From Saprospiraceae bacterium (lineage in GTDB: Bacteria; Bacteroidota; Bacteroidia; Chitinophagales; Saprospiraceae), in the NCBI GenBank assembly GCA_036741235.1, contig DAINSQ010000004.1:4200-68199 (forward strand): a DNA stretch of 64,000 nucleotides. The letters are read 5' to 3'. The position numbers and the translations under genes are program-made. Below are positions 20,125-57,777 of the stretch, one piece after another (the first letter of the stretch is position 1; every line of letters begins with the position of its first letter). The notes under the pieces were generated by a model. That model made no database searches and was not told the origin of the DNA. It saw nothing but the letters and a program-made list of their open reading frames with translations.

Positions 20125-21186
20125 ATGGGTAAAGTAAAAAAAACACCGCCAGGAGCTCAACGCGCAGGCCGGGAGCAGGCCGAAGAAGAAACTTCCAGTG
20201 AAAATATCGCATTGGAACGGGGCGTTAATTATGTGTTGGCTATTGCCATCGACAAATATGCCGCACCCAACAAACCCCTTTACAATTGCGAACGCGACGC
20301 TGAGGACATTACCCGCATTCTGACTACCAAGTACACGTTTGCTCCCGAAAATGTGAAAAAATTGTATAACGAAAATGCAACCTACGATAATATACTGGTC
20401 GCATTGGATGAGTACTCTCGCCGGCTGGAAGAAAAAGACAGTCTGTTGATCATTTATTCGGGCCACGGCGAAAACCGCAATGGCATAGGCTTTTGGATTC
20501 CCGTAGAAGCTAAAAATTTTACCGATTACCTGCCGCTTAGCCTCATTCGCGATTATCTCGAGCCCGTCAAAGCGAGGCATATTTTTGTGGTATCCGACTC
20601 GTGTTTTGCAGGGCGTTTTTTTATGAGTACTCGCAGCGGCGCCGACTTTACAAAATACACCGAAAAACACCCCTCCCGCTATGCCCTCACTGCCGGCAGA
20701 GATGAACCCGTATTGGACGGAAAACCCGGCCAGAACTCGCCGTTTGCCGATGCTTTTAAATCTGTTTTGAGCAATAATTCCGATCCCATTGGCGCGGTAA
20801 TGCTGAGCGAAAAAGTTTTACTGGACGTTTCCAAAAAAGTCGAAGGCTTTCAAACACCCCGCCACGGCGAACTCAATATCGATGGCAATAAGCACGGACA
20901 GTTTTTCTTCCATCCCAAAAAAGGTATGGGCGCCGAAGAACACCTGGCTACCGCCCAGTTGATTTTACAACTGGCAGACCACGTGTACGACCCTGGCTTG
21001 TACCGTTCGGCAGAAAAGCATATCATTTTTGCTATCGAAAATGCCCGACTGGATAATATCAGTCTACCCGAGGCGCTTTATTGGCAGGCCAAAGCGATGC
21101 AAAGCGCCGGCGATTACGAAGCAGCGATGCAATTATATTCCGAATTTATCGCTCAAAATAAACAGACGCCGAACCCCGCTCCATAG
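20125..21186 (+). CDS. caspase-family (peptidase C14) protein, catalytic dyad intact, C-terminal TPR-like helices
   Basis: His in LLIIYSGHG and Cys in FVVSDSCFAG at the spacing expected for a p20 fold. No signal peptide. Lies 21 nt after glyA. Confidence 0.8.
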   Translation: MGKVKKTPPGAQRAGREQAEEETSSENIALERGVNYVLAIAIDKYAAPNKPLYNCERDAEDITRILTTKYTFAPENVKKLYNENATYDNILVALDEYSRRLEEKDSLLIIYSGHGENRNGIGFWIPVEAKNFTDYLPLSLIRDYLEPVKARHIFVVSDSCFAGRFFMSTRSGADFTKYTEKHPSRYALTAGRDEPVLDGKPGQNSPFADAFKSVLSNNSDPIGAVMLSEKVLLDVSKKVEGFQTPRHGELNIDGNKHGQFFFHPKKGMGAEEHLATAQLILQLADHVYDPGLYRSAEKHIIFAIENARLDNISLPEALYWQAKAMQSAGDYEAAMQLYSEFIAQNKQTPNPAP

Positions 21187-21202
21187 TCCAAAAACTTAGT
21201 TT

Positions 21203-35798: not shown

Positions 35799-38700
35799 TT
35801 ATCTCACAATTCCCACATCTCCTTTATCTTCAAAGCTTACCAACTGACCACAGCGGAAGACTATAGCCTTTAAGTGCCATACATAGACGCCGGGATTCAT
35901 GGCCTTGCCCCGGTAATCGCCATCCCAACCGGCAGTATAGTCATCTGAACTATACAACATATTACCCCAACGGTCGAAAACATTGAGCTGGAATTCTTCT
36001 ACCTGTACGCCCTCGCCTGTAAATACCTGAAAAAGGTCGTTGATGCCGTCGCTGTTAGGAGAGAAGGCATTGGGAATATAAAAAATGCCGAGTTTACCCC
36101 TCACTTCCGGCACTACTGATACCGACTGGCCGACGGCCTCGCAGTCATTGCTCACTTGCAGGTTGTATACCCCTGCGGCAGTAACTATCCGTGTTGCTGT
36201 AGTGTCGCCATTATCCCAAAGATAACTGATTTGACCTACCAGCCCCGATAGTATGTTGACGCCTATTTCGACCTGCAACTCATTGCATGGCAAGATAAAT
36301 TCCTCGGTACTCAGGCGCAGCGATTCAAGGGTAGGTACGGCAACAGTATTTTCGCTTTCGCAACCGTTGGCATCTCTGACGACAACGAGATAGTCGCCTG
36401 CCTCGACCGCTGAAAAATCAGCTTCCTGCTGAAAGGTATTACCATCTATGGAATATTCAAACGGCCCATTGCCGTTAACATTGGCTACCCTAATGGCGCC
36501 AGTGCCGCTATTGGGACAACTTGCCGTGCTGCTCGCACTGAAGTCCGGCGCAGGCAATGCCGATACGCTCACTATTATTACAGAATCGCACCCCTGCTGG
36601 TCAGACAGTGTAATGGTTTGAGTTTCTCCAGCATTGATGGTTATTCCGTTAAAATCAATCGAGGCGCCCTCGCAAGCCTGAAAAGCTAATTGTGTGGTAT
36701 CTACTACCAAAGCGCTCACGCTAACACGGACAATAGAATCGCATCCCGCCTGTCCCTGTCCGGCAAGCACAAATTCAGCAGTATCGCCGGCTTGCAAGGT
36801 AGTGCCCTGGTAAGTGATGGTTTCTCCGGGACAAGTTAAGAGCTGCAAATCCGAGGTGTCGGGGAATAGCTCAACCACCGTCACCGTCACAATCGAATCG
36901 CAACCGACACTGTTGGTAAGCGTCACGCTGGTCTGGCTTCCTGGTAACAGGGTTTGCCCATTGTAAGTTACCGTAGTGCCCGTACAGGCTTCCAATTGCT
37001 CAATTCCGGTACTGGTAGGCAACGCGGAGACCGTGACGGTTACCACTGAGTCGCAACCGACGCTATTGGCGAAAGTGAAGTCGACCTGATCGCCAACATT
37101 TAAAGTAATTCCATTGTATACTAAAGGCTCACCGGGACAACTCTGTAAGGAAACACTGCCTGTACTGGTGGGCAACGCCGACACCGTTACAGTGACTATC
37201 GAATCGCAGCCCAGACTGTTGGCAAGTGTGAATGCAACCTGGTCGCCTACCCCGAGTGCTGTACCATTGTAATCAATGGTCGTGCCTGGACAAGTTTGCA
37301 GGGCCAAACTGGTAGCATCAGTAGGCAAGGCTGTCACAGATACAGTAACCACCGAATCGCAACCCAGGCTGTTGGTAAACGTAAAAGGTATTTGATCGCC
37401 CACAGTCAATGCAGTGCCATTATAGTCTATCGTGGTACCAGGACAGGTCTGCAGGGTTAAACTGGATGCGTCTGTTGGCAAGGCCAATACGCTTACCGAT
37501 ATGATGGAATCACAACCGTATTGATTGGTGTAAATAAAATCCTGCTGATCGCCTACAGCAAGGCTGATGCCCTCGTATGTAACCTGATCGCCGGGGCAAG
37601 CGCTCAAATCAACGACCATAGTTTGCGAAGGAAGCATAGTAATTGCCACATTTTCGAGCGAATCGCAGCCCGACAGCGCTTGGTGTTGTATGCTGAAGGT
37701 AGTATCCATTGCGTAGGTTTGCCCCTGGTATACAACAGATTCACCCTCACAGAAACTCAAAACAGTATTGCTGCTGATCAGCGGGCACAGCTTGAGTAAC
37801 CAATCGACGGCAATACCTCCGGGACAGCCTGACAACGTTGAATCAACCTGAACGTATATTGGCTGATAGTTGGAAGGCAGTGACAAAGTATCTAATACCA
37901 TCGTATAATCGTTGGCAGTGGCGTTAACCCAGATATAGCTGCCGTTGTCTGCCAGGAGCAAAGTATCGACTTGCAGGGCAGGATCGGAAATAAAGATCCC
38001 TCCGCCGTTAAACAACGTATCGCTGAGGTCGATGATGCCGTTGTCATTGACATCCACATAAATCGACCCGCTGATCGTACCGTAACCGGGAAAAAGATCG
38101 AGGTTGAGGTCGGCAGAAGTCAATTGACAGCCCAACGCGTCGGTCACTTCAAGGGTATAATTGCCGCTTTGCATAGGCGCCAGGTTGAGCATAGTGCCTT
38201 CCGGGGCGGCAATAGCATTACCGTTGAGGTACCACTGATAACTCACAGCGCCCAAAATTGGCGGCACACAAATGGTATCGGGCAGACACCGGGTATGGCA
38301 CCCTGAAGGAACTTGCTTAACATTGGGGCCTTTCTGGACGTTTACCGTATTACTCTGCGCCTGGCAGCCAAAACTATTGACCGCCACGGCGTAATAATTG
38401 CCGGCCAGGGTATTGATAATACTTGGCCCCGTTTGACCTGTACTCCAAAAGTAATTCACCCCGCTTTCCGGCGTGTCTACTGAAAAAGTGATGGGCGTGC
38501 TTTCGCACAATAATCCGGTAGGTTGGGTGCTAATCTGTAAGTCCACGGGGTTGGGATTTACATTCACCACAAAAGGACCTACAACGGCGCTACACCCATT
38601 AATCTGATTAACAACAGTAAGAGATATATCGTGTTGCCCTTCCGACAGCAAATTGCCCCTGTCTTCTGAAAATTCAGCTACCTGGCCGCTCTGTCCCGTT

Positions 38701-41700
38701 GACCATTGATAAGAATAGCCCAAACCGCCGCCGATAGCCTCCAGATAAACCGGTTCGCCATAACAAACCTGCAATGTATCATAATAAAAAGCCACCTGTT
38801 GGCCGGATTCGTCAAGTTCGTAAGCCCTGATATCAGAATAAGGAGCCGCAATCATCTGTAAATTGACGGGATTGGGGCTATAGGTACAACCCTGGGCATT
38901 GGTTACAGTAACCCGATAAGCCCCTGGAGATCCGGCGAGCAAATTGGAAGTTACTGCACCGTTGCTCCACGACCAGCTAACGCCGCCAGCCGGCGCTGTG
39001 AGGGTAACAGAATCGCCCTCGCAAAAAATACTGGCCGGGGCAACACTGATGTTGCCCGATAAGTTGTTGGCCGTGACGGTCACCGGCTGGTCTACCACAG
39101 CCGTGCAGCCCTGAATATCCTCTGCGCTCAATTGAACGACATAAACAAAAGAACTCTCATACGCGTGATAAGTACTGGCCAGTGTAGAAGTATTGGCATC
39201 GCCGCTGAACGGATCGCCAAAATCCCAATTTAAAGAAGCAATATCCGGAGGTACGTTGGCCTGAAATTGCAGCGGGGTCCCCTCGCAGTTCTCAACCGGC
39301 GGCGTAAAGCTGATTACCGGCGGGCTGAATACTTCCACGGGTTTTGAAATGACGGCCTGGCATCCCGTCGAACTAGTGACAGTCAACACCGCATTATACG
39401 TGCCGGGAGTATTGTAAACATGCGTTGGATTTTGCAAACCTGAAAAATTCGCGGCGCCGCTGGCCGGGTCGCCAAAATCCCATTGCCAGGATGCAATAGA
39501 AACAAAAGGCAGGTACGTAGACCTATCGTTGAATTGAGCGGCAGCGCCAGGACAAGCCGGGTAAACGATAAAGTCTGCCGCTAATGCCACGGTATCAACG
39601 CGCAAAGTACCACAACTCACAATACTGCCTCCAATATTATAATTGGCCAGCAAAATTACTTCATGAAAACCGGCAGTAGCATAGAGGTGGTTGGGATTAT
39701 CCAGCGTCGAGCTGTTGTTGGCGCCACTTTCGGGATCGTCAAAATTCCAGAATGCCGAACCAGGAATAAACAGCGGGCTGGTTATTTGGTAAGTACGGTC
39801 ATTGCAATCAAATCCAGGAATAATATCAAACGGCGTGATTAAGGCCGGATCACAGGCGCTGCCGCCGCCAGGCAATCCGCCTCCGGCCCCGCCACTGCCG
39901 CAATCGCCGAATACCTCCAATGCATTGGAAGCAGATATACAGCCGTTGACATCCGTCACCTCCACTGTGTATACGCCTGCTATTGATGCCAACAGAGACG
40001 CGGCATTAACGCCGAGCGCCATGCCGTCGCGATACCACTCGTAACTGCTGGCCGTTTGGTTGCCAATAGTGTATAAAGTAGGTTGTTCTACGTTGAGACA
40101 ACGCACTCCCGGCGTACTCAAACGAACCGATGGGGCCGGTAATACGTCTATCTGAAATGTTTCTTCACCTACACATCCAAACGCGTCAGTGACAATCACC
40201 TGGTAATAACCGGGGCCCACCGATGGCGTAGCCGCATTACTGATCACATCGCCATCCTGATCGCGCCAGATATAGCCGGCAAATGCAACACTTGTCTGTA
40301 CCTGCGCAGTCACATTATCGCAGAGCGATCCCGGATGCACAATCGTTGGGGTCGGCAGTGCCAGCACGTTCACATTATATGTGCTGGTTTGGTTGCAAAT
40401 ATCCAATTCCACGGTGGCGGGGCCGGCCCTGTGCCACAACACTTCTATTTGTGCCGCCGTTGGATCGCTGATAATCGTGCCGGCATCACTGGGAGAAATA
40501 CTCCATTCATATTGTAACTGAGGTAAAACCTGTGCGCTATACTGGGCGGTGCTTTCCATACAGACGTCATTATCCCCTGAAATGGTCGGAGCTTGTACTT
40601 GCTGAATATTCAACATCACAGGAGTAGAAGCGCAACCCTGGGCGCTGGTTTGCACCACAGAAAGACTGTTGTTATTGGGAGAAGCCCAGGTCACGCTTAT
40701 TCGCCTGCCCGCGCGGGTACTGGGCACGCCATTGTTAACAACCTGCCAGGAGAAATTATTGGTTGGGAAAGCAGTTGCTACTTCATAAAGATAAGGCTGG
40801 TTGGCGCAAATCTGCGTCGGGCCGATGATGGAATCTACAGGGGGGGTAACATCGGGTACGGCTACGCGAACAAATGCAGAGTCGACGCAATATTCGTTGG
40901 GCATATCCGGAAATGCCACTACCAGGTATTGCCCCTGGGGTACACTCCAGGGAACGGTTGCAGTGCTGACGGGCGCTGCCGATGTCCAGGCAATATTGCC
41001 GCCGGCGCCCTGAAGCTCCCACGACGACACCACCGGGTCGTTATTAATTGCGCTTCTGGCCGTATAGTTACTAGAGCTGCCAGGACAAGCTTCAACAGCG
41101 CCAGTAACCCTGAAGATGGGTTTTACATTCACCTCCAGCGTATCGCTGCCGCCGCACCCCAAATAACAGTGATCAATTTGGACTGCCACCCATTGCGTTT
41201 CGTCAAACGGTGTATCGTCCGCCCAATTGACCGACACTTCGTTGGCGCCTTGTCCTGCAACTATCGTCCCATATTGCGATACGCTCCATACAATATCGGC
41301 GCCATCATATGCCGGAACGCTATATAGAACACTATTACTGCGGCATGCTTTAGCAGGGCCTTCTATTTGCACATCATCTGATAAAATAGGCGCCTCAATT
41401 CTGGTGGGGCGCAAACAGGGACCGGCGCCGACGCAATTGGTCACGGATAGTTCTATCTCCCCCACATATCCGCTATTCCAGGTAATAGTAATATAGGGAT
41501 CAGCAGGTCCGCCACCGTCGATAACGGCGCCATTGGGGCTAACATTCCAATCGTATGCGGCGCAAACTTCCGCAGTCGTATAGGTGACGGTAGCGCCCGG
41601 GCAAACCGCCCCGTCGCAGGTGATAGGTGGTTGACTGGTATCTTCCACTACCACCACCGCATAAGCCGTGTCCAGACAATTGCAGTCGCTGCCGGCTATC

Positions 41701-42554
41701 ATTGTTACATTAAATGTACCGGCTTGCGCGTAAATATGGTTGGGGCTTACCTCGGTTGAAGTACTAAAATCGCCGAAATCCCACAAATAAGTGTTGGCAT
41801 TCGAGGTAGTATTTGTAAACTGTAAATTTTCTCCCTTGCAAATTCGAATAGTATCATTGGATGCAGCCGGACTCGTTGTAAAGCCAGCCACCGGCGGCGC
41901 CAGCACTTCTGCGCAGAGATAGAAAAAGCTGGTACATTGAGGAAAGGTGCCGCCGATACCTTCAAAGGCATAAGCGGCTACTAACTCGCCAATACCTGGC
42001 GAAGCCCAGGTAACCCGTACCTGATCGCCCACATATTGCACGTCTGAAACATTGGAAAAATCGGCATACAAAAAAAAGACGCCGGGATAAGGCGGCGACA
42101 ATAGTGGGTAGGAAAGCGTATAGGTCACGGTAGTCTGCGCGCAAAGCCTGTCGCAGTCCAGGCTGTCAGCCGGATCCGTATCAGGGCATTGCGGCGCATC
42201 GGAATACAAAAGTTCAGGTACGGGCGCGCCATCGGAAACAAACACATTCAACGTTGCCGGGAACGTTAGATCGGATGTTTCTATAATAGCATTTATGACA
42301 TAAGTGCCGGGAGTATCAAAACAAATCTCCTGGGAAAAACCCTGTGAGGAATATTGTACGCCATTGTTCAAAAACCAGATAACATGCGCGTTGGCAGGAC
42401 TGCCTCCGCCGGTGAGTACAACGGAATACGTCGCACACTCGCCAGTACAAACAGATGTCGGCCCGTTAATGACCATCAGCGGCGGATTTTGGGCGTTGAG
42501 CTGAAATTGGGAAAGCATGGCGCATACAAAAAAACAAAGAGTAGAAATACGCAT
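35799..42554 (-). CDS. giant (2251 aa) cell-surface adhesin with PKD/Ig-like repeats and type-B T9SS (gliding-motility CHU_C-like) C-terminal domain
   Basis: Signal peptide MRISTLCFFVCAMLSQFQLNAQ. Several PKD-like units (WDFGD...NPxHxY). Eight ~50-aa Cys-pair repeats. C-terminal FYIPNAFSPNSDGINDLFQVF...WDGDYRGK...VYVWHL is the type-B sorting domain signature. Confidence 0.9.
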   Translation of the reverse strand: MRISTLCFFVCAMLSQFQLNAQNPPLMVINGPTSVCTGECATYSVVLTGGGSPANAHVIWFLNNGVQYSSQGFSQEICFDTPGTYVINAIIETSDLTFPATLNVFVSDGAPVPELLYSDAPQCPDTDPADSLDCDRLCAQTTVTYTLSYPLLSPPYPGVFFLYADFSNVSDVQYVGDQVRVTWASPGIGELVAAYAFEGIGGTFPQCTSFFYLCAEVLAPPVAGFTTSPAASNDTIRICKGENLQFTNTTSNANTYLWDFGDFSTSTEVSPNHIYAQAGTFNVTMIAGSDCNCLDTAYAVVVVEDTSQPPITCDGAVCPGATVTYTTAEVCAAYDWNVSPNGAVIDGGGPADPYITITWNSGYVGEIELSVTNCVGAGPCLRPTRIEAPILSDDVQIEGPAKACRSNSVLYSVPAYDGADIVWSVSQYGTIVAGQGANEVSVNWADDTPFDETQWVAVQIDHCYLGCGGSDTLEVNVKPIFRVTGAVEACPGSSSNYTARSAINNDPVVSSWELQGAGGNIAWTSAAPVSTATVPWSVPQGQYLVVAFPDMPNEYCVDSAFVRVAVPDVTPPVDSIIGPTQICANQPYLYEVATAFPTNNFSWQVVNNGVPSTRAGRRISVTWASPNNNSLSVVQTSAQGCASTPVMLNIQQVQAPTISGDNDVCMESTAQYSAQVLPQLQYEWSISPSDAGTIISDPTAAQIEVLWHRAGPATVELDICNQTSTYNVNVLALPTPTIVHPGSLCDNVTAQVQTSVAFAGYIWRDQDGDVISNAATPSVGPGYYQVIVTDAFGCVGEETFQIDVLPAPSVRLSTPGVRCLNVEQPTLYTIGNQTASSYEWYRDGMALGVNAASLLASIAGVYTVEVTDVNGCISASNALEVFGDCGSGGAGGGLPGGGSACDPALITPFDIIPGFDCNDRTYQITSPLFIPGSAFWNFDDPESGANNSSTLDNPNHLYATAGFHEVILLANYNIGGSIVSCGTLRVDTVALAADFIVYPACPGAAAQFNDRSTYLPFVSIASWQWDFGDPASGAANFSGLQNPTHVYNTPGTYNAVLTVTSSTGCQAVISKPVEVFSPPVISFTPPVENCEGTPLQFQANVPPDIASLNWDFGDPFSGDANTSTLASTYHAYESSFVYVVQLSAEDIQGCTAVVDQPVTVTANNLSGNISVAPASIFCEGDSVTLTAPAGGVSWSWSNGAVTSNLLAGSPGAYRVTVTNAQGCTYSPNPVNLQMIAAPYSDIRAYELDESGQQVAFYYDTLQVCYGEPVYLEAIGGGLGYSYQWSTGQSGQVAEFSEDRGNLLSEGQHDISLTVVNQINGCSAVVGPFVVNVNPNPVDLQISTQPTGLLCESTPITFSVDTPESGVNYFWSTGQTGPSIINTLAGNYYAVAVNSFGCQAQSNTVNVQKGPNVKQVPSGCHTRCLPDTICVPPILGAVSYQWYLNGNAIAAPEGTMLNLAPMQSGNYTLEVTDALGCQLTSADLNLDLFPGYGTISGSIYVDVNDNGIIDLSDTLFNGGGIFISDPALQVDTLLLADNGSYIWVNATANDYTMVLDTLSLPSNYQPIYVQVDSTLSGCPGGIAVDWLLKLCPLISSNTVLSFCEGESVVYQGQTYAMDTTFSIQHQALSGCDSLENVAITMLPSQTMVVDLSACPGDQVTYEGISLAVGDQQDFIYTNQYGCDSIISVSVLALPTDASSLTLQTCPGTTIDYNGTALTVGDQIPFTFTNSLGCDSVVTVSVTALPTDATSLALQTCPGTTIDYNGTALGVGDQVAFTLANSLGCDSIVTVTVSALPTSTGSVSLQSCPGEPLVYNGITLNVGDQVDFTFANSVGCDSVVTVTVSALPTSTGIEQLEACTGTTVTYNGQTLLPGSQTSVTLTNSVGCDSIVTVTVVELFPDTSDLQLLTCPGETITYQGTTLQAGDTAEFVLAGQGQAGCDSIVRVSVSALVVDTTQLAFQACEGASIDFNGITINAGETQTITLSDQQGCDSVIIVSVSALPAPDFSASSTASCPNSGTGAIRVANVNGNGPFEYSIDGNTFQQEADFSAVEAGDYLVVVRDANGCESENTVAVPTLESLRLSTEEFILPCNELQVEIGVNILSGLVGQISYLWDNGDTTATRIVTAAGVYNLQVSNDCEAVGQSVSVVPEVRGKLGIFYIPNAFSPNSDGINDLFQVFTGEGVQVEEFQLNVFDRWGNMLYSSDDYTAGWDGDYRGKAMNPGVYVWHLKAIVFRCGQLVSFEDKGDVGIVR
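36550..37775 (-). repeat. eight tandem ~50-aa coding repeats (consensus ..L.TCPG..I.Y.G..L.VGDQ..F...NS.GCDS.V.V.V.ALP)
   Basis: Read from the translation of the adhesin. The DNA copies are clearly diverged at many third positions. Confidence 0.85.
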
Positions 42555-42591
42555 GGGCTTACGTGTTTTCGGGAAAATAATCAAATTCAAC

Positions 42592-50218: not shown

Positions 50219-50255
50219 AGGCATCCCGAAAAAATTCGGGATGCCTTATGTTTTT
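50219..50255 (+). terminator. rho-independent terminator
   Basis: AGGCATCCCGAA-AAAA-TTCGGGATGCCT, a 12-bp perfect stem, followed by TATGTTTTT. Confidence 0.8.
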
Positions 50256-50257
50256 AC

Positions 50258-50265
50258 TAAATTTG
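50258..50265 (+). promoter_or_regulatory. Bacteroidota-type -7 box (TAAATTTG) upstream of the Ddl-fusion gene
   Basis: Exact TAnnTTTG match, 30 nt upstream of the ATG at 50295. It supports that start over the ORF-track start at 50241. Confidence 0.5.
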
Positions 50266-50294
50266 CGGGTTATTCAAGCTACCTGCTAAACTAT

Positions 50295-53200
50295 ATGAAG
50301 CTAAGAGTCGGCATTTTCTTTGGAGGCCCTTCCCGCGAACGCGAAATTTCTTTCGCCGGCGGACGCACCGTTTATGATAATCTCAATAAATCGCTCTTCG
50401 AGCCGGTGCCTATTTTTGTAGATAGTCAGAAGAATTTTATTCTACTCGACTGGCAGTACATCTATAAAGGTACTATTAGAGACTTCTATCCCCCAATCGA
50501 TCAGATTCCCCCCTCGCCCAATGAATTCCAGATCTATTCGGAAAGTTTGGGCGAAATAAGCAGGGAAGAACAAGACCGCATGATCGCAGAGGTGGGCCGG
50601 CGAATAGACCCGCGTGAACTACCCACGCTGATCCATATAGCATTCCTGGCATTACACGGATTATACGGCGAAGACGGCCAGATTCAGCGCGAACTCGAAA
50701 CCCTGCATATTCCCTATACCGGCAGCGGCATGCGCGCCAGCGAAATCGGTATGGACAAAGCCCTGCAAAAGCGTCTGATGGCTGAAAAAGGCTTCTCCGA
50801 GCCGACAGTTATGACGCTCAAACGCGAAGACTGGCTGAAAGCCGATATTGAAGCGCTATTTTACCAAGCTATCGACAAGGTCGGGTTTCCCATGGTGATC
50901 CGCCCCGCCAACCAGGGCTCTTCGATCGGCGTATCGATAGCCGACGAAAAACTGGGCGTCGAAGGCTTCGAGCAGGCTATTAACCGCGCTTTCTTTCGCG
51001 AAATAATTCCGGTTAGCGAATGGACCGACCGCGACCACTTCGAACGCGTGGAGTATACCCGCCTGCTGAGCGATATCCGCGATGGATTGGGTTTCCCCAT
51101 TTCGGTTACTTTTCACAACCAGAAACATACGATTTATCACCCGGAAGCGCTCCTGAATTACCTCAACGACCAATCAGCGCAGATTGATAACGGCTTTTTT
51201 ATTCTGGAGAGTTTCCAGGATGAACGCGAGGTAATTATAGAGTCGTTTATTCACGGCAAGGAATTCTCTTGTATCGTGATCCGCAAGGAAGACGGCAGCG
51301 CTGCGGCCTTGCCTCCTACCGAAATAGTGAAGGGCAAAGAAGTATTCGACTATCGATCGAAATACATGCCCGGCCTTTCGCGCAAAGTAACTCCCATCAA
51401 TCTGCCTTCTGCCCAAATCAACGCCATCCGCGGAGAATGCGAACGCCTCTTCCTGGAACTGGGCTTTGCCACTTATGCCCGCATTGACGGCTTCATCACC
51501 CAGGATAACCAGATCTTCCTCAACGACCCCAATACTACATCGGGCATGCTGCCCTCTTCTTTCTTCTTTCACCAGGCAGCAGAGATCGGCCTGAACCCGT
51601 CGCAATATCTCACATATATCATCAGGGTTTCCTTGCAGGAACGCCTCGTCGAACATCCTGAAGAAGGCGCATGGAAAGGCTACTTGCGCATACTCGACGA
51701 ATCTATTCAATCGCTTAAAGTCTCCCAGTCCAGTCGCAAACGCATCGGCGTGATCCTGGGCGGTTATTCTTTTGAAAGGCATATTTCGGTAGAAAGCGGG
51801 CGCAATATTTTTGAAAAACTATCTAGCTCCGATAAATACGAACCAATTCCTATATTCCTGACTGGCGAAACCGGACATTTTGAATTGTACCAATTGCCCA
51901 TCAACCTCTTGTTGAAAGACAATGCCGACGATATTCGCGACAGGATACTTGGCTGGCAAGAGCACCCCCTTATAGACCAGATAAAACTCCAGTGTGCAGA
52001 TATTACCCGAAAATACGCTTCGCACGACGTTGTATTTGCGCCGCGCAAGATTTCGCTGGAGGAACTACCAGCTATGGTTGACGGCGTTTTCATCGCATTA
52101 CATGGGCGCCCCGGCGAAGACGGCCAATTACAGATGTACCTCGACGCCATGCACATCCCCTACAACGGCTCGGGCGTGGCCTCTTCGAAAGTTACGATCG
52201 ATAAACACCGTACGCTCCAGACCCTCAAGAAAAACGGATTTCCGGTTGCCGACCAGTTGATCATAAAAAGAGAAGAATACAAAGCCGGCGCAGAAACCTG
52301 CTATAAACACATTGAAGACCAGTTTGGTTATCCATTGGTGGCCAAACCTGTTGACGACGGTTGTAGCTCGGCAGTAAAGGTGATTCGCAACCGGACAGAA
52401 CTCGAGGCATTTGTGCAGCTGATGTTCCGCCCCTTCAGCGAGGAAGGTCTTGAGCAGCGAAAGTTGTTGCAACTCAAACCCAAAGAAGAATTTCCCAGAA
52501 AAGATGAAATTCTGTTTGAAAACCTCATTTCCCGAAACGGCGCCGGCCACTTCCTGGAGATTACCGGCGGCCTGCTAACCCATTACAATATGGACGGCAC
52601 GCTGCGCTACGAGGTGTTCGAACCCTCCGAAACACTGGCCACCGGCGAAGTACTGTCGCTCGAAGAAAAATTCCTGGCCGGCGAAGGACAAAATATCACC
52701 CCCGCCAGGTTTAGTCCCAATAAATCAGTATACCAAAAAATCGCCGCCCAGGTAAAAGGCGATTTGGAACGAGCCGCCAGAATTCTCGACGTACAAGGAT
52801 ATGCACGCATCGATGCCTTTGTACGCATCTTCGATAACCAACGCGCCGAAACGCTGGTAATCGAAGTGAATTCACTGCCGGGCATGACTCCGGCTACCTG
52901 TATTTTTCACCAGGCGGCGATTAACGGTTACAAGCCTTATGATTTTATTGATAAAATTCTGAGTTTCGCTTTTGCGCGAAAAGCCCGCTTGGGCGGTATC
53001 GCTCCGGCGCCCGCCGCTAATGCGCAGGAAGAGGTCAACGCTTTTACCAGCCTGCTCCCCGAAGAACCAACCCCCGTAGCCGAAATTAACCAATACCGGC
53101 AGGAGTTGGCAGCAGCAGAACAGTCTAAACCCCATGCGTCAAGCCAGGGCGATAATACTGCCAAAAACGAACCCTATTTTGGAATGGAAAAACCACCTAC

Positions 53201-54044
53201 CCCCCTTCAACAATGGGTGATTAGCACGCGGGAGTTTTTTACCTCACCCTATTTTTTGCGCAACCTTGGCGTATTACTCGGCTTTTTATTTGTGTTTATT
53301 ACGCTGCTGTCCTTTGCACTGCGTCTCTATACCCGGCATGGCGAATCGCTGACTGTACCCAAGTATGAAGGTATGCATGTAGACGAGGCTATACGCAAAG
53401 CCAAAAGCCGCAGTTTTTCGGTGGTGGTGCTCGACTCCATCTACGAAATTGATAAAGTACCTGGCACAGTTTTCCAACAAGATCCCAAACCTTCATCGCG
53501 TGTTAAGCAAAACCGAACCATCTATTTATCAATTTACAGCAAAACTCCACCTGAAATTGAATTGCCCACCCTGGTAGGCAGCTACAATTTCGAACAATAC
53601 GCCAAAAAATTGAGTATCCTCAAACTAAAGGCCGTTATTAAAGAACGGGTATTCGACAGCGTGCAGGAAGAAAATACCATCCAATATTTCTTTTATGATG
53701 GTCAGAAAATTACCGATAACGACTTGCGCAAAGGCGTAAAAGTGCCACAGGGCAGTACACTCGAATTTGTTGTTACACAACGTCATACCGGCATGGTGGC
53801 AATACCCAATTTGGTATGCCAGCAATACAAAGCGGCACATTTCCTCATTACCAGCATGAACCTGAGCGTAGGCGCAGTTTATGGCGAAGTATTTGACGAC
53901 GCATATGTGTGGAAACAGGAACCGGAATACATAGAGGGCCAAATGATCAGGATTGGCGAACAAATCAATATTTATCTCACCAATACCAGACCGCAAGGCT
54001 GCCCCGAAGAGGAGATTTTGGATGTGGATCAGCAGGAACAATAA
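50295..54044 (+). CDS. fusion protein: two D-alanine--D-alanine-ligase-like ATP-grasp modules, a linker, a TM helix and three PASTA domains
   Basis: Module 1: MKLRVGIFFGGPSREREIS, ALHGLYGEDGQIQ, RPANQGSSIGV, ARIDGF, LNDPNTTSG. Module 2: RIGVILGGYSFERHIS, ALHGRPGEDGQLQ, KPVDDGCSSAV, ARIDAF, IEVNSLPGMT. TM helix LGVLLGFLFVFITLLSFAL (about nt 53262-53330). Three PASTA-like units begin VPKYEGMHVDEA, LPTLVGSYNFEQ and IPNLVCQQYKAA. Confidence 0.8.
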   Translation: MKLRVGIFFGGPSREREISFAGGRTVYDNLNKSLFEPVPIFVDSQKNFILLDWQYIYKGTIRDFYPPIDQIPPSPNEFQIYSESLGEISREEQDRMIAEVGRRIDPRELPTLIHIAFLALHGLYGEDGQIQRELETLHIPYTGSGMRASEIGMDKALQKRLMAEKGFSEPTVMTLKREDWLKADIEALFYQAIDKVGFPMVIRPANQGSSIGVSIADEKLGVEGFEQAINRAFFREIIPVSEWTDRDHFERVEYTRLLSDIRDGLGFPISVTFHNQKHTIYHPEALLNYLNDQSAQIDNGFFILESFQDEREVIIESFIHGKEFSCIVIRKEDGSAAALPPTEIVKGKEVFDYRSKYMPGLSRKVTPINLPSAQINAIRGECERLFLELGFATYARIDGFITQDNQIFLNDPNTTSGMLPSSFFFHQAAEIGLNPSQYLTYIIRVSLQERLVEHPEEGAWKGYLRILDESIQSLKVSQSSRKRIGVILGGYSFERHISVESGRNIFEKLSSSDKYEPIPIFLTGETGHFELYQLPINLLLKDNADDIRDRILGWQEHPLIDQIKLQCADITRKYASHDVVFAPRKISLEELPAMVDGVFIALHGRPGEDGQLQMYLDAMHIPYNGSGVASSKVTIDKHRTLQTLKKNGFPVADQLIIKREEYKAGAETCYKHIEDQFGYPLVAKPVDDGCSSAVKVIRNRTELEAFVQLMFRPFSEEGLEQRKLLQLKPKEEFPRKDEILFENLISRNGAGHFLEITGGLLTHYNMDGTLRYEVFEPSETLATGEVLSLEEKFLAGEGQNITPARFSPNKSVYQKIAAQVKGDLERAARILDVQGYARIDAFVRIFDNQRAETLVIEVNSLPGMTPATCIFHQAAINGYKPYDFIDKILSFAFARKARLGGIAPAPAANAQEEVNAFTSLLPEEPTPVAEINQYRQELAAAEQSKPHASSQGDNTAKNEPYFGMEKPPTPLQQWVISTREFFTSPYFLRNLGVLLGFLFVFITLLSFALRLYTRHGESLTVPKYEGMHVDEAIRKAKSRSFSVVVLDSIYEIDKVPGTVFQQDPKPSSRVKQNRTIYLSIYSKTPPEIELPTLVGSYNFEQYAKKLSILKLKAVIKERVFDSVQEENTIQYFFYDGQKITDNDLRKGVKVPQGSTLEFVVTQRHTGMVAIPNLVCQQYKAAHFLITSMNLSVGAVYGEVFDDAYVWKQEPEYIEGQMIRIGEQINIYLTNTRPQGCPEEEILDVDQQEQ

Positions 54045-54085: not shown

Positions 54086-54130
54086 TGCCGGGAATGTGAA
54101 CAAACAACAATTCCCGGCAATCGTCGTTTT
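54086..54130 (+). terminator. rho-independent terminator after the Ddl-fusion gene
   Basis: TGCCGGGAAT-(14 nt)-ATTCCCGGCA, a 10-bp perfect stem, followed by ATCGTCGTTTT. Confidence 0.6.
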
Positions 54131-54157: not shown

Positions 54158-56704
54158 ATGAAAAAATGGTACGCCGCACTCTGGGCATTGTGCATGTATT
54201 CGTTGGCAGGTGCGCAGCAACTCACCCCCCTTACCGAAAACCCCGTTTTGAAACAACATTTCCAGCTCGCCGATCAGTTGCAACCCGGCATTTGGCGCTA
54301 TAACCCGGGCGAAGGACAAGAGAAAAACGCCTGCCCTCTTACTGAGGCAGGTGTGAGTTATGTAGAAGCCGGCAAACGAGCCGATCAGCGCATTTTTGTA
54401 ACGCCCAGCAGCGATACCACGGCCATACTGCTTTGCGATGGTTGCGATATGCTGCAATACGGCGCCGCCGTTATTGTTAAAGATTCGCTTTACTATACCG
54501 CCAACGCCGATGTACTAGCGGGGCGGGATACCCTGAAGGTCAAATTGTGCAAACCCGACGCCTCCGTCTGCTACGATTCAATCACCTATTATTTTGTAGC
54601 GAAACGTGCCGGCCGTAATTATTTCCCGCCGCGGGTGAATATCGCACAAGAGCAATTTGTCAACCTCGAAGCCGATAAAACGCTTTTGCCGGGTGAACTC
54701 GCCTGCAATACCTTTGTAGATTGTCCCGATAATTACCAGGGACGCGCCCAGCGATTCTGGTTTACCGATTATTCCACCCCCGACCACCGTTTTGTTTACG
54801 AAGCCTCGCGTTATGCCGGCGTCGACTCGGTATGCCTGGCTTTATGCGATGAATACGCCGTGTGCGATACGTTCCACTACGCTATCCGTATTAGCAGCGA
54901 TACGGTGGGACTGCCCTTTATGGACGATTTCTCTTACCCCGGCCCCCTGCCTTCTATCGACCACTGGCTCGATATTGACCCATTTATTAATACGACTATG
55001 GGCGAAATGCCCCCTTCTATCGGGGTCGCAACCTTTGACGGCATCGACGGCCGTGGCAGCGCATACGGCGGACAATACGGCCCCTCCGACTACCTGACGT
55101 CGAGATATCTCAACCTGCAAGGCGCCGGCGGCAACCTGACCCTCACTTTTTGGGCGCAACGCCGCGGGTTGGTTGATCGGCCTGAGATTCAGGACTCTCT
55201 CGTTCTCGAATTTAAAAATTCCTTCGGCATCTGGCAGATCGCTTTGTCGCTCAAAGGTATTCCAGGCAGTCAAACTAACGACGCGCCCGAACCCTTCCGC
55301 TTCTACGACGTGCCCGTACCTCAAGAATTCAGGTATAAAGGCTTCCAGTTCCGGTTCCGAAATTACTCCGACCGGCTGGGTATCAACGACAATTGGCATC
55401 TCGACTATGTGCGCCTTGACGCCGTGAATATCGATTCTATTTTTAGCGATATCGCTTTTACCCAACAACCCAATTTTATTTTAAAGAATTACACCAGTAT
55501 GCCCTGGCGGCATTTCGAAGGTCGCGAAGCAGAAGAACTGGGCGACAACATTGCTGCGGGCATTTACAACCATGCCGGCCAATCGCTCAATGCCAGCCCC
55601 TCGTCGGTAAGCCTGGTAGAACTCAATTCGGGATTTAATGTTTTTGGCTCGGCTGTAACGCTGTTTAACGGCCTGGAGGCCAATATACCCAATGGCGAGC
55701 CGGTTAGTCGATCCTATCAATTACTGGACGATCCGACCGGTTTCCCCGAGGTGTGGCCCAATTACCTCCTCACTATGGAAGGCCCCACTTTTGACGATGC
55801 CGACCGCCTCGATTTTGAATTAAAATATACCCTCAATAATACTTCGCAAATCAATCAGCCCGGATTCGAGGCGGTACAACGCAACGACCAGGTGACGCAG
55901 ACGACCGTTTTCGACAACTACTTCGCCTACGACGACGGCACCGCCGAGGCGGGGCTCGTTACTTCAGAAGGCACTCAGGTGGCGATGAAGTATACTGCCG
56001 GCGTCGACGATTCCCTGCGCGCTGTGCGTATTCATTTCCCGCATACCTCCGCCGATGTGAGCGATCAAACATTCCGGCTGCGCGTTTGGGTGGGGCAACT
56101 CGACAATTCGCCCGAATATTCGATGAATTTACTGCCCTATTATGCCGATTCGTTTTTCGATACCCTGCAAGGCTTTACTACTTATCCGCTGGTTGACGCC
56201 AACGGCAATAATGCGCCGATGTTTATTCCCGCCGGCGATTTTTATGTGGGCTGGCAACAAATTACTTCTTGCGAGTTCACGCGCTGCGTGCCCATTGGTT
56301 ACGACAAAAACAGGCCTAATGTCAAGGAGTTTATTTTCCGAAACAGCGGACAGGGATGGGAACCGCTTTCCGAATTTACGCCCGGCGGCGCTTTGATGAT
56401 CAGACCGGTGGTAGGAGGTATCACTCCCGGCGCTACACCCGTAGATGAACCGACCCCAGAAACAGGGTTTCAGTGGACTATCTACCCCAATCCTGCCGCC
56501 GATGCAGTATTTGTCCAGTTGAACGACGGCTTGTACGAACAATTTGACTTCAGGTTGTTTAATAGTAATGGCCAGCTTGTGCAACAGGGCCCATTGTCGC
56601 CGCAAATACCTGTAACGAGCCTGCCCAACGGCGTTTACTGGATGGCCGTACGCCACCGTGATACGCAACAGATTGAGCATCGCAAACTGGTTATTGTGCA
56701 TTAA
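54158..56704 (+). CDS. secreted hypothetical protein (848 aa) with T9SS C-terminal sorting domain
   Basis: Signal peptide MKKWYAALWALCMYSLAGAQQ from the ATG at 54158. C-terminal WTIYPNPAADAVFVQL...GVYWMAV tail. The ORF-track start at 53909 overlaps the upstream gene and its terminator. Confidence 0.8.
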   Translation: MKKWYAALWALCMYSLAGAQQLTPLTENPVLKQHFQLADQLQPGIWRYNPGEGQEKNACPLTEAGVSYVEAGKRADQRIFVTPSSDTTAILLCDGCDMLQYGAAVIVKDSLYYTANADVLAGRDTLKVKLCKPDASVCYDSITYYFVAKRAGRNYFPPRVNIAQEQFVNLEADKTLLPGELACNTFVDCPDNYQGRAQRFWFTDYSTPDHRFVYEASRYAGVDSVCLALCDEYAVCDTFHYAIRISSDTVGLPFMDDFSYPGPLPSIDHWLDIDPFINTTMGEMPPSIGVATFDGIDGRGSAYGGQYGPSDYLTSRYLNLQGAGGNLTLTFWAQRRGLVDRPEIQDSLVLEFKNSFGIWQIALSLKGIPGSQTNDAPEPFRFYDVPVPQEFRYKGFQFRFRNYSDRLGINDNWHLDYVRLDAVNIDSIFSDIAFTQQPNFILKNYTSMPWRHFEGREAEELGDNIAAGIYNHAGQSLNASPSSVSLVELNSGFNVFGSAVTLFNGLEANIPNGEPVSRSYQLLDDPTGFPEVWPNYLLTMEGPTFDDADRLDFELKYTLNNTSQINQPGFEAVQRNDQVTQTTVFDNYFAYDDGTAEAGLVTSEGTQVAMKYTAGVDDSLRAVRIHFPHTSADVSDQTFRLRVWVGQLDNSPEYSMNLLPYYADSFFDTLQGFTTYPLVDANGNNAPMFIPAGDFYVGWQQITSCEFTRCVPIGYDKNRPNVKEFIFRNSGQGWEPLSEFTPGGALMIRPVVGGITPGATPVDEPTPETGFQWTIYPNPAADAVFVQLNDGLYEQFDFRLFNSNGQLVQQGPLSPQIPVTSLPNGVYWMAVRHRDTQQIEHRKLVIVH

Positions 56705-56718
56705 AAACACCTACACAC

Positions 56719-57021
56719 ATGGATATTACCGTTCAGGAATTAAAAGAAAGAATGGACAAAGGCGAGGCCGTCCACCTGATTGATGTTCGCGAGCCTTACG
56801 AGCACGAAGAATTCAATATCGGCGGGTTGTTGTGCCCACTGGGTGATGTGATGCGCGCCATCGAAGAAATGGAGGATCACAAATCCGACGAGATTATAGT
56901 TTATTGTCGCTCAGGCAGGCGCAGCGATACGGCCAAACAACTTATGCAACAAGCCGGCTACCAAAATGTGCGCAACCTCCTGGGAGGCATGTTGGCCTGG
57001 CAAGAGGCGTTTGTGAAGTAA
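56719..57021 (+). CDS. rhodanese-like single-domain sulfurtransferase
   Basis: 100 aa. Active-site loop VYCRSGRRS and the C-terminal GGMLAWQ motif. Confidence 0.85.
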   Translation: MDITVQELKERMDKGEAVHLIDVREPYEHEEFNIGGLLCPLGDVMRAIEEMEDHKSDEIIVYCRSGRRSDTAKQLMQQAGYQNVRNLLGGMLAWQEAFVK

Positions 57022-57087: not shown

Positions 57088-57777
57088 TTACTGCTTTTTC
57101 TTCACAATCGCTTCTACTCCTTTCGCTTCCAATTCCTTTTTCAGTGCCTGGGCCTCGGATTGGGAAGAAAAGCGGTCTACCAGGGCAACAGCCAGGGCGC
57201 CACGGTTGAAAGACTCCACAGTGGCGTTGTTATAGCCGAGTTTATGCAGGCGGGCAACCTGATTCTCCGCATTGGTTTTACTCTTAAAAGAGCCCGCAAT
57301 CACCAGATAGTCGCCGCTGTTGGAAGAAGAAGCAGTGCGGCTGGGAGCAGGTTCTTCCTCATACCCTTCATCGCGCGAAGCCGTTGATTTGGCGGTAGAT
57401 TTCGTAGTAGTGGTTGAAGCCGGTTTAGTATCCGGTTTGGGTTTAGTTGCGGTTGCCGGCTTTTTTGTCGTTTCCGACGACGATTTGCTGCCCGGTTTTG
57501 TCGATTTAGCGCTTTCCGTTGCGGGTTCCTCTTCGTAATCCGTAGCCGTCATTTGATCGTCGTCAAGGTCTTCTTCTTTGGTATAAGAACTCAGCGAAGT
57601 ATCTGCGTAATCGCTATAGGTGCTTGCGCCAATCGTATCCTGATAGGGCGTTTCAATCAGCGTTTCTTCCGGGGGCGTATCATTGCTCATCAGCTTAACG
57701 GTTTTGTAAACCAGAAATCCCAGGGCGGCCAGACAAACGCCCACAATGCCGATGGTGAGGTAGTCAACTCTTGACAT
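57088..57777 (-). CDS. SPOR-domain (peptidoglycan-binding) membrane-anchored protein
   Basis: N-terminal TM helix (LTIGIVGVCLAALGFLVY). Low-complexity S/T/K/P linker. C-terminal SPOR-like segment DYLVIAGSFKSKTNAENQVARLHKLGY...ALVDRFSSQSEAQALKKEL. Confidence 0.75.
   Translation of the reverse strand: MSRVDYLTIGIVGVCLAALGFLVYKTVKLMSNDTPPEETLIETPYQDTIGASTYSDYADTSLSSYTKEEDLDDDQMTATDYEEEPATESAKSTKPGSKSSSETTKKPATATKPKPDTKPASTTTTKSTAKSTASRDEGYEEEPAPSRTASSSNSGDYLVIAGSFKSKTNAENQVARLHKLGYNNATVESFNRGALAVALVDRFSSQSEAQALKKELEAKGVEAIVKKKQ

Follow-up and report, generated by a model that had tools for sequence, protein, structure and literature searches.

Ddl, the D-alanine:D-alanine ligase, is usually regarded as a soluble, homodimeric housekeeping enzyme, and PASTA domains as a trait that kinases and penicillin-binding proteins (PBPs) have in Gram-positives. 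Dimers recur among the solved Ddl structures (PMC6899670), and the function of PASTA domains has been documented for Gram-positive kinases and PBPs (PMC6448482). A literature search returned no publication that deals with a tandem Ddl, with Ddl fused to PASTA or with PASTA proteins of Bacteroidota or diderms. Here we describe a gene from the Saprospiraceae bacterium assembly GCA_036741235.1 that joins the two. It lies at positions 50295..54044 (+ strand) of a 64,000-nucleotide stretch of contig DAINSQ010000004.1, referred to as the window in the following, is complete (1249 codons plus stop), and encodes a protein of 1249 amino acids (aa) with two Ddl modules, a tether, a transmembrane (TM) helix and three PASTA repeats. 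The original prediction, made from the sequence of the window, had described it as D-Ala-D-Ala ligase modules hard-wired to extracytoplasmic peptidoglycan-sensing domains. On balance, we favour an active pseudo-dimeric Ddl that a wall-binding PASTA ectodomain in the periplasm would tether to the inner membrane.

A single open reading frame (ORF) with two complete Ddl-type ATP-grasp modules had been predicted, and Pfam, AlphaFold2 and Foldseek agree on this; all Ddl motifs quoted at the time are present in the window protein. Pfam assigns the pair Dala_Dala_lig_N and Dala_Dala_lig_C twice, to aa 4-443 and aa 482-890. When searched alone, module 1 scores 81 and 116 bits and module 2 scores 80 and 74 bits with the N- and C-terminal family, respectively (cut-offs 34.6 and 24), and the whole protein reaches 344-359 bits with the generic Ddl subfamily models of NCBIfam (cut-offs 243-262). 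Pfam and the alignment delimit the DdlA-like module 1 (aa 1-455; 50295..51659, + strand), for which the AlphaFold2 model was used in addition, and module 2 (aa 478-897; 51726..52985, + strand). Between them lies a helical connector (aa 456-477; 51660..51725, + strand) with a column conservation of 0.45, modelled as a helix at residues 458-480. The AlphaFold2 model of aa 1-900 (pLDDT 87.5, pTM 0.87, with scores below 50 confined to two omega loops) has the three-domain fold of Ddl and shows the two modules as one rigid body. Foldseek aligned it with DdlA, DdlB and the Ddl enzymes of S. aureus and T. thermophilus at TM-scores to the target of 0.79-0.90, E. coli DdlB (2DLN) reaching up to 0.90.

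To what extent the active sites are kept was seen by aligning 120 relatives to DdlB and DdlA of E. coli (NC_000913). Both modules retain E15, K97, E180, E187, K215, R255, D257, N272 and G276 (DdlB numbering) in at least 118 of the 120 relatives. The residues of module 1 are E15, K155, E316, E323, K356, R396, D398 and N413, and the ATP/Mg residues of module 2 are E494, K637, K684, E742, E755, K792, R838, D840, E857 and N859. The set for ATP/Mg binding and the transition state (K97, K144, E180, E187, K215, R255, D257, E270, N272) is complete in module 2, and in module 1 it is complete apart from two invariant conservative changes, R203 at the place of K144 and D411 at that of E270 in E. coli DdlB. 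The canonical Glu15/Ser150/Tyr216 triad is present in module 1 as E15/S209/Y357, and for the protein as a whole it is this module that supplies the triad. In module 2 the same positions read E494/C690/F793 and thus depart from the Glu/Ser/Tyr of dipeptide ligases: C690 replaces S150 and F793 replaces Y216 (each in 119 of the 120 relatives), and T868 stands for S281 and L787 for Y210. The original prediction had derived a possible difference between the modules from a D-for-E change and large insertions in module 1. Both features are real, the former being the family-invariant D411 and the latter an insertion of ~70 aa relative to DdlB at aa ~233-305, but the changes in the substrate site (C690, F793, T868) are found in module 2 and not in module 1.

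This asymmetry is remarkably constant. Read at the DdlB positions 15, 97, 144, 150, 180, 215, 216, 255, 257, 270 and 272, module 1 has the signature EKRSEKYRDDN and module 2 EKKCEKFRDEN in 42 complete fused orthologues from species genomes, with zero changes, among proteins whose PASTA regions are just 38-87% identical to the query profile. In 80 unfused metagenomic relatives module 1 reads EKKSEKYRDDN (80/80) and module 2 EKKCEKFRDEN (78/80). The window protein carries exactly this tandem-Ddl signature, E-K-(K/R)-S-E-K-Y-R-D-D-N in module 1 and E-K-K-C-E-K-F-R-D-E-N in module 2. Since the signatures recur in fused and unfused relatives, the asymmetry of the modules is old and strongly selected. 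The identity between the two modules is 26%, and they have insertion positions in common. Module 2 scores 150 bits against module 1, as compared to 90-98 bits against DdlA or DdlB, and this closer relationship, together with the common insertion positions, fits an old internal duplication.

From its sequence, module 1 is predicted to make D-Ala-D-Ala. Due to the Cys for Ser150 and the Phe for Tyr216, module 2 probably has an altered selectivity for the second substrate, or a supporting role. An enzyme with two products would take this further: module 1 (Tyr type) would form D-Ala-D-Ala and module 2 (Phe/Cys type) a depsipeptide or another D-Ala-D-X, and two kinds of stem-peptide ends would then be built from one protein. 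The choice between Phe and Tyr at the Tyr216 position decides between depsipeptide and dipeptide synthesis in lactic acid bacteria (PMC5996685), F793 and C690 are fixed in more than 240 sequences, and the Y216F DdlB structure 1IOW is among the Foldseek matches. However, the Phe/Tyr rule was worked out in another lineage of Ddl, the protein stays far below the cut-offs of the D-Ala-D-Lac and D-Ala-D-Ser ligase models of NCBIfam, and no D-lactate dehydrogenase or D,D-dipeptidase partner was found nearby. Furthermore, Y216F DdlB is said to still make D-Ala-D-Ala (reportedly the result of Park, Lin and Walsh in 1996). Taken together, we consider two products from one enzyme quite unlikely.

Behind the ligase modules come a linker, a single TM helix and a series of three PASTA repeats, as had been predicted and as hydrophobicity, Pfam, the structural model and Foldseek now support. 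The tether (aa 898-971; 52986..53207, + strand) is rich in Ala, Pro, Glu and Gln, has a column conservation of 0.14, and is of low complexity and 31-125 aa long among the fused orthologues. It leads into a conserved element (53208..53336, + strand) consisting of an amphipathic juxtamembrane helix (aa 973-983, FLxSxxFLxN) and the TM helix (aa 985-1014), which is closed by a conserved YTxHG motif. This element contains the one hydrophobic segment of the whole protein (aa ~986-1013, with a TM core at ~989-1011). PASTA repeat 1 (aa 1017-1083; 53343..53543, + strand) is recognised by Pfam PF03793 at aa 1020-1080 with 45-56 bits (cut-off 23.2) and also by the model and Foldseek. Repeats 2 and 3 are weak matches of ~14 bits each, below the same cut-off, that cover the profile from position 1 or 2 to 62 of 64. 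Repeat 2 (aa 1084-1164; 53544..53786, + strand) has an extra strand, a short helix and a conserved EENTI(L/Q) motif, and repeat 3 (aa 1165-1236; 53787..54002, + strand) is bracketed by an invariant Cys pair, C1175 and C1236. With the repeats 2 and 3 being weak, profile searches thus recognise the C-terminal repeats as PASTA, just as they recognise both modules as Ddl. In the AlphaFold2 model of aa 972-1249 (pLDDT 90), the juxtamembrane helix and a TM helix of 30 residues precede three beta-alpha-beta repeats. Foldseek aligned ~220 columns of the ectodomain, with a probability of 1.0, to PrkC of S. aureus (3PY9, 3M9G) and PknB of M. tuberculosis (5E12, 2KUI), these structures being three- and four-PASTA ectodomains.

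No signal peptide is present in the 1249-aa protein. We infer an N-in/C-out topology with periplasmic PASTA repeats, because a folded N-terminal enzyme of 980 residues that lacks a signal peptide cannot be exported, and because the free PASTA homologues resemble signal-anchor proteins. The juxtamembrane helix and TM element also open these free-standing PASTA proteins. C1175 and C1236 may form a disulfide, which would be consistent with a periplasmic location.

The order of catalytic domain, TM helix and PASTA repeats raises the question of a transmembrane allosteric sensor, in which ligand binding to PASTA or ligand-driven oligomerisation would switch the ligase on or off, an idea put forward for PASTA kinases, and dipeptide supply would track the state of the wall. 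The same layout is found in PknB and PrkC, to which the ectodomain has its best structural matches, conservation extends to the juxtamembrane helix and the YTxHG motif, and PASTA kinases respond to muropeptides (PMC6448482). Nevertheless, an unconserved tether of low complexity and such variable length is ill-suited to transmit a conformational signal, close relatives run both parts as separate or even unlinked genes, and dimerisation-driven activation is unnecessary for a ligase that already is an intramolecular pair. We therefore regard such signalling as unlikely. Because the tether is not conserved and because split and unlinked forms are viable, tethering or co-localisation is preferred over allostery. 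An enzyme with two products whose periplasmic PASTA ectodomain reads the wall state and positions the enzyme or tunes its product choice appears highly improbable; if true, a large Gram-negative clade of the Bacteroidota would build chemically mixed stem-peptide termini under extracytoplasmic feedback.

A search of 5.8 billion proteins retrieved more than 120 clusters of full-length relatives with 1210-1306 aa and 55-88% identity, which are named 'PASTA domain-containing protein [Saprospiraceae bacterium]' by NCBI and by JGI D-alanine-D-alanine ligase. The proteins are thus already in public databases under generic names. Many relatives (among them P0002, P0043, P0056, P0343 and P0350) bear another JGI label, 'UDP-N-acetylmuramate--alanine ligase', which appears to have been carried over from the MurC-Ddl fusion family, since the window protein has no MurC domain. 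Relatives of intermediate length, P0152 (797 aa), P0169 (818 aa), P0167 (698 aa), P0154 (858 aa) and L056 (872 aa), look like either a single Ddl-like module with TM-PASTA or strongly eroded tandems.

For a scan of species genomes (one genome per species) we used a PASTA profile built from a 10-sequence alignment, which samples genomes with a K[LQ]EENTIL or GSYNYDQY-type motif and under-samples forms that co-occur in one genome. All 80 loci obtained stem from Saprospiraceae, Lewinellaceae, Phaeodactylibacter, or metagenome-assembled genomes (MAGs) of unclassified Chitinophagales or Bacteroidia, and seven Neolewinella species and four Lewinella strains are represented by isolate genomes. Apart from degenerate versions, a fused gene is present at 45 of the 80 loci; it is complete and has intact active sites at 42 of them, whereas contig ends or a frame break interrupt it at the other 3. 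Fused genes with degenerate active sites occupy 6 loci, a Ddl-Ddl ORF followed by an adjoining or overlapping separate PASTA ORF was found at 7, and 1 locus holds a fragment. At the remaining 21 loci the PASTA gene (~280-350 aa) stands alone, in 14 cases with at least 3 kb of upstream sequence without a Ddl-like ORF. Two different PASTA-bearing fused genes that are 43% identical over 400 aa (L081 and L088) were seen in one MAG, Bacteroidota bacterium P01_H01_bin.139, and are either true paralogues or the result of a mixed bin.

That a frameshift, read-through or chimeric assembly joined separate genes could have been suspected from the split relatives, and loci L023, L044 and L080 have overlapping frames that resemble frameshifts. 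More than 120 protein clusters of independent origin and 45 independent genomes of different species, isolates included, show the uninterrupted architecture, which refutes this explanation and leaves it with practically no probability. The fusion, which is conserved in more than 100 species, is genuine and neither a frameshift nor an assembly artefact.

Where the parts come from is indicated by relatives in which they are separate. When 1.84 billion cluster representatives were scored with a profile made from the C-terminal 278 residues, 604 clusters matched at E<1e-30, comprising both fusions of ~1100-1290 aa and many free proteins of ~270-300 aa. The free PASTA proteins align over their full length to the C-terminus of the window protein, from the juxtamembrane helix through the last PASTA repeat. 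One of them, P0296, begins 1 nt after the 915-aa Ddl-Ddl gene P0328 in L007/L008 and is followed there by a type IX secretion system (T9SS) cargo gene and an RluD-like gene. The order Ddl-Ddl, free TM-PASTA, T9SS-cargo is repeated in L170, and a free TM-PASTA gene also follows Ddl-Ddl in L022, L026 and L035. A metagenome scan with a tandem-Ddl profile yielded more than 470 relatives, of which the 80 nearest to P0328 are unfused without exception (~895-940 aa). Near these 80 genes, a PASTA gene lies directly 3' in 36 cases and elsewhere in the locus in 2, none occurs within up to 6 kb in 33, and the contig edge is reached in 9. Likewise, no PASTA gene is located near the tandem Ddl of the inspected locus L169. 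The free PASTA protein P0190, used as a query, gave only 6 matches, and its relative P0293 does not adjoin ddl. NCBI names the unfused tandem proteins 'D-alanine--D-alanine ligase' in MAGs of Bacteroidia, Bacteroidota and Sphingobacteriaceae. A Ham1p-like (ITPase/RdgB-type) gene was observed immediately upstream of the tandem ligase in all three inspected loci (L007, L169, L170).

The original prediction mentioned a free-standing TM-PASTA gene next to ddl in some Bacteroidota. Such a gene was indeed found, and that ddl is already a tandem Ddl-Ddl. We conclude that the tandem Ddl is older than the fusion and widespread in uncultured Bacteroidia, and that the protein of Saprospiraceae and Lewinellaceae is the fused form of an ancestral gene pair, or operon, of Ddl-Ddl and TM-PASTA.

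The various forms can be compared because the surroundings of the gene are conserved. Downstream of the ligase gene in the window lies a T9SS-cargo gene (54158..56704, + strand), the product of which has a signal peptide, a T9SS C-terminal sorting domain and no other Pfam domain. A rhodanese-domain gene (56719..57021, + strand) and a convergent SPOR-domain gene (57088..57777, - strand) complete the conserved downstream block; SPOR is a family of peptidoglycan-binding domains. This block is found 3' of the PASTA-bearing gene at loci with intact fused, degenerate fused (L027, L029, L032), split and PASTA-only genes, and it is conserved across Saprospiraceae and Lewinellaceae. One PASTA-only locus, L043, has a MatE gene upstream as in the intact loci L004 and L042, yet just a 277-aa PASTA gene. 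The fused, degenerate, split and PASTA-only genes at this block are positional orthologues. Equivalents of the T9SS-cargo gene (~630-930 aa) were seen in L004, L007, L170 and most of L009-L088, and in L007 and L170 they overlap the PASTA gene; the T9SS-cargo protein and the PASTA protein may be partners in function.

In the degenerate full-length orthologues (L027, L032, L038, L056, L010 and L029), most catalytic residues are lost in one or both modules, and the TM and PASTA parts are still 35-55% identical to the query, so that these proteins look like pseudoenzyme derivatives. Among the cluster representatives, P0124-P0146, P0155, P0175 and P0181 are of this kind and include Phaeodactylibacter luteus WP_147165960.1 and Haliscomenobacter sp. 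An assignment of the degenerate forms L027, L029 and L032 as paralogues was rejected, as the T9SS-cargo/rhodanese/SPOR block that follows the intact genes follows them too. In a neighbour-joining tree built from the PASTA region, intact and degenerate forms are mixed, its ~250 residues being too weak a basis to count independent decays.

Since some lineages thus keep the architecture without catalysis at the same locus, the protein might be mainly non-enzymatic. Its Ddl-like modules would then be the cytoplasmic domains of a PASTA-anchored envelope protein, serving to bind or scaffold D-Ala, D-Ala-D-Ala, ATP or a Mur ligase, with the dipeptide coming from another ddl. On the other hand, all catalytic residues are kept in both modules of the window protein and of 42 of the 48 complete fused orthologues, and the signature is maintained across the 80 unfused tandem ligases, a constraint that is hard to explain without catalysis. 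A purely binding role for the modules therefore seems rather improbable to us.

We propose that the window protein is a bitopic inner-membrane protein whose residues 1-900 would act as a cytoplasmic tandem D-alanine:D-alanine ligase, with the two modules most likely imitating the Ddl homodimer within a single chain. The PASTA ectodomain is predicted to be periplasmic and, by analogy, to bind peptidoglycan or lipid-II-type ligands, and the anchor would keep dipeptide synthesis at the membrane near the sites of precursor assembly. Ligase activity of at least module 1 is suggested by its active site, and a peptidoglycan-type ligand of the ectodomain by its homologues. The terms 'peptidoglycan-sensing' and 'hard-wired' of the original prediction were likewise drawn from homology. 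Of the latter, the covalent fusion stands, but the tether is not conserved, and the link is broken or the ligase decayed in several relatives at the same locus, which speaks for a tether and against an obligatory wire for signals.

Some observations weigh against our proposal. The TM helix is flanked by R979/E980/R989 before and R1010/R1014 after it, so that the positive-inside rule is not clearly obeyed. For a pseudo-dimer resembling that of 2DLN, the basis is the pTM value of the model. A degenerate fused gene at 6 of the 80 loci and a PASTA gene without upstream Ddl at 14 or more, all at the same syntenic locus, indicate that the PASTA protein functions without a linked active ligase. In these genomes another gene must supply D-Ala-D-Ala, for which an unlinked tandem Ddl is the obvious candidate, and as another Ddl is required there, the window protein need not be the sole Ddl of its host either.

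A large group of Gram-negative Bacteroidota carries Ddl as a fixed unequal tandem with one Tyr-type and one Phe/Cys-type active site, and in Saprospiraceae and Lewinellaceae this tandem would be covalently anchored to the inner membrane via a predicted periplasmic PASTA array. As 'Rosetta stone' evidence, the gene fusion points to a physical link between an early cytoplasmic step in the synthesis of wall precursors and something that is read in the periplasm, and PASTA domains gain a role in diderms that can be tested. A natural series for dissecting this role is provided by the forms at one locus, which are fused, split, unlinked or catalytically dead, and cultured carriers (Neolewinella, Lewinella) put the biochemistry within reach. 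Specialists in wall synthesis are likely to be surprised that the tandem is unequal and fixed, that a diderm should have a membrane/PASTA anchor on it, and that nature offers such a series of forms.

The + strand from 50220 to 54044 forms a single stop-to-stop frame, the longest ORF of which begins with ATG 50241. We accepted ATG 50295 as the better start, because nearly all relatives open with MK(L/I)(R/K)VGIFFGG and because a -7 box, TAAATTTG, sits 3' of ATG 50241. The Bacteroidota -7 promoter consensus is TAnnTTTG, and this putative box (50258..50265, + strand) matches it 30 nt 5' of ATG 50295. It falls just 3' of a GC-rich, terminator-like hairpin, GGCATCCCG...CGGGATGCC (50220..50245, + strand), which was read from the sequence 3' of an upstream T9SS-cargo gene and is likely to be the terminator of that gene, suggesting that the ligase gene has its own transcription. 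Another hairpin, CCGGGAAT...ATTCCCGG (54088..54117, + strand), lies within the 113-nt spacer 5' of the downstream gene. The GC content of the ligase gene (0.49, compared to 0.50 for the window) counts toward a native gene, and the 64-kb window contains no second Ddl-like or PASTA-like ORF. Elsewhere in the window and unrelated to the ligase, two adjacent genes for caspase-like Peptidase_C14 proteins with TPR repeats (353 and 983 aa) are located at 20125-24154 (+ strand), and the largest ORF of the window, with 2263 aa, at 35799-42590 (- strand).

With the canonical Ddl enzymes (E. coli DdlB 2DLN, Salmonella DdlA 3I12), the window protein shares the N-terminal, central and C-terminal domains and the ATP-grasp residues at TM-scores of 0.8-0.9, and module 1 has the same Glu15/Ser150/Tyr216 triad. 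In contrast to these, it is an unequal two-module chain and membrane-anchored, with the ~70-aa insertion, K144R and E270D in module 1 and S150C, Y216F and S281T in module 2. In vancomycin-resistant lactic acid bacteria, the Phe-type Ddl (Leuconostoc LmDdl2, 1EHI) likewise has Phe at the omega-loop position (PMC5996685), but module 2 is only 17-19% identical to it and additionally has Cys for Ser150. Van-type models of NCBIfam were not reached by the window protein, the best being VanG with 240 bits (cut-off 495), and the D-Ala-D-Lac model scored 171 bits (cut-off 550). A precedent for a Ddl fused to another function of wall synthesis is the MurC-Ddl fusion of the Chlamydia type (NCBIfam NF011171). 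This model gave 173 bits against a cut-off of 1015, with the Ddl part alone matching and no MurC domain in the window protein.

The unfused pairs of a ~900-aa tandem Ddl and a ~280-aa TM-PASTA protein (P0328/P0296, L007, L170) are the closest in composition, having the same modules (52-59% identity) with near-identical residue signatures, the same TM-PASTAx3 part and a T9SS-cargo neighbour. They differ in that two genes encode the parts without a tether, that module 1 has Lys at position 144, and that about half of the sampled loci lack an adjoining PASTA gene. The class B PBPs with PASTA domains (S. pneumoniae PBP2x, S. aureus PBP1), which occupy Foldseek ranks 7-25, also have C-terminal PASTA domains on an enzyme of peptidoglycan synthesis. 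Their enzyme and PASTA parts are both outside the membrane, whereas the enzyme of the window protein would be cytoplasmic and acts several pathway steps earlier; no transpeptidase domain is among its Pfam matches, and neither is a kinase family. In layout, the PASTA Ser/Thr kinases PknB, PrkC and StkP come nearest, since both combine a catalytic domain in the cytoplasm with a single TM helix and a row of extracytoplasmic PASTA domains. That these kinases help to sense or locate wall precursors has been documented (PMC6448482). The window protein differs from them in having a biosynthetic ligase as its cytoplasmic domain, a diderm host from the Bacteroidota and a long, unconserved tether between enzyme and membrane.

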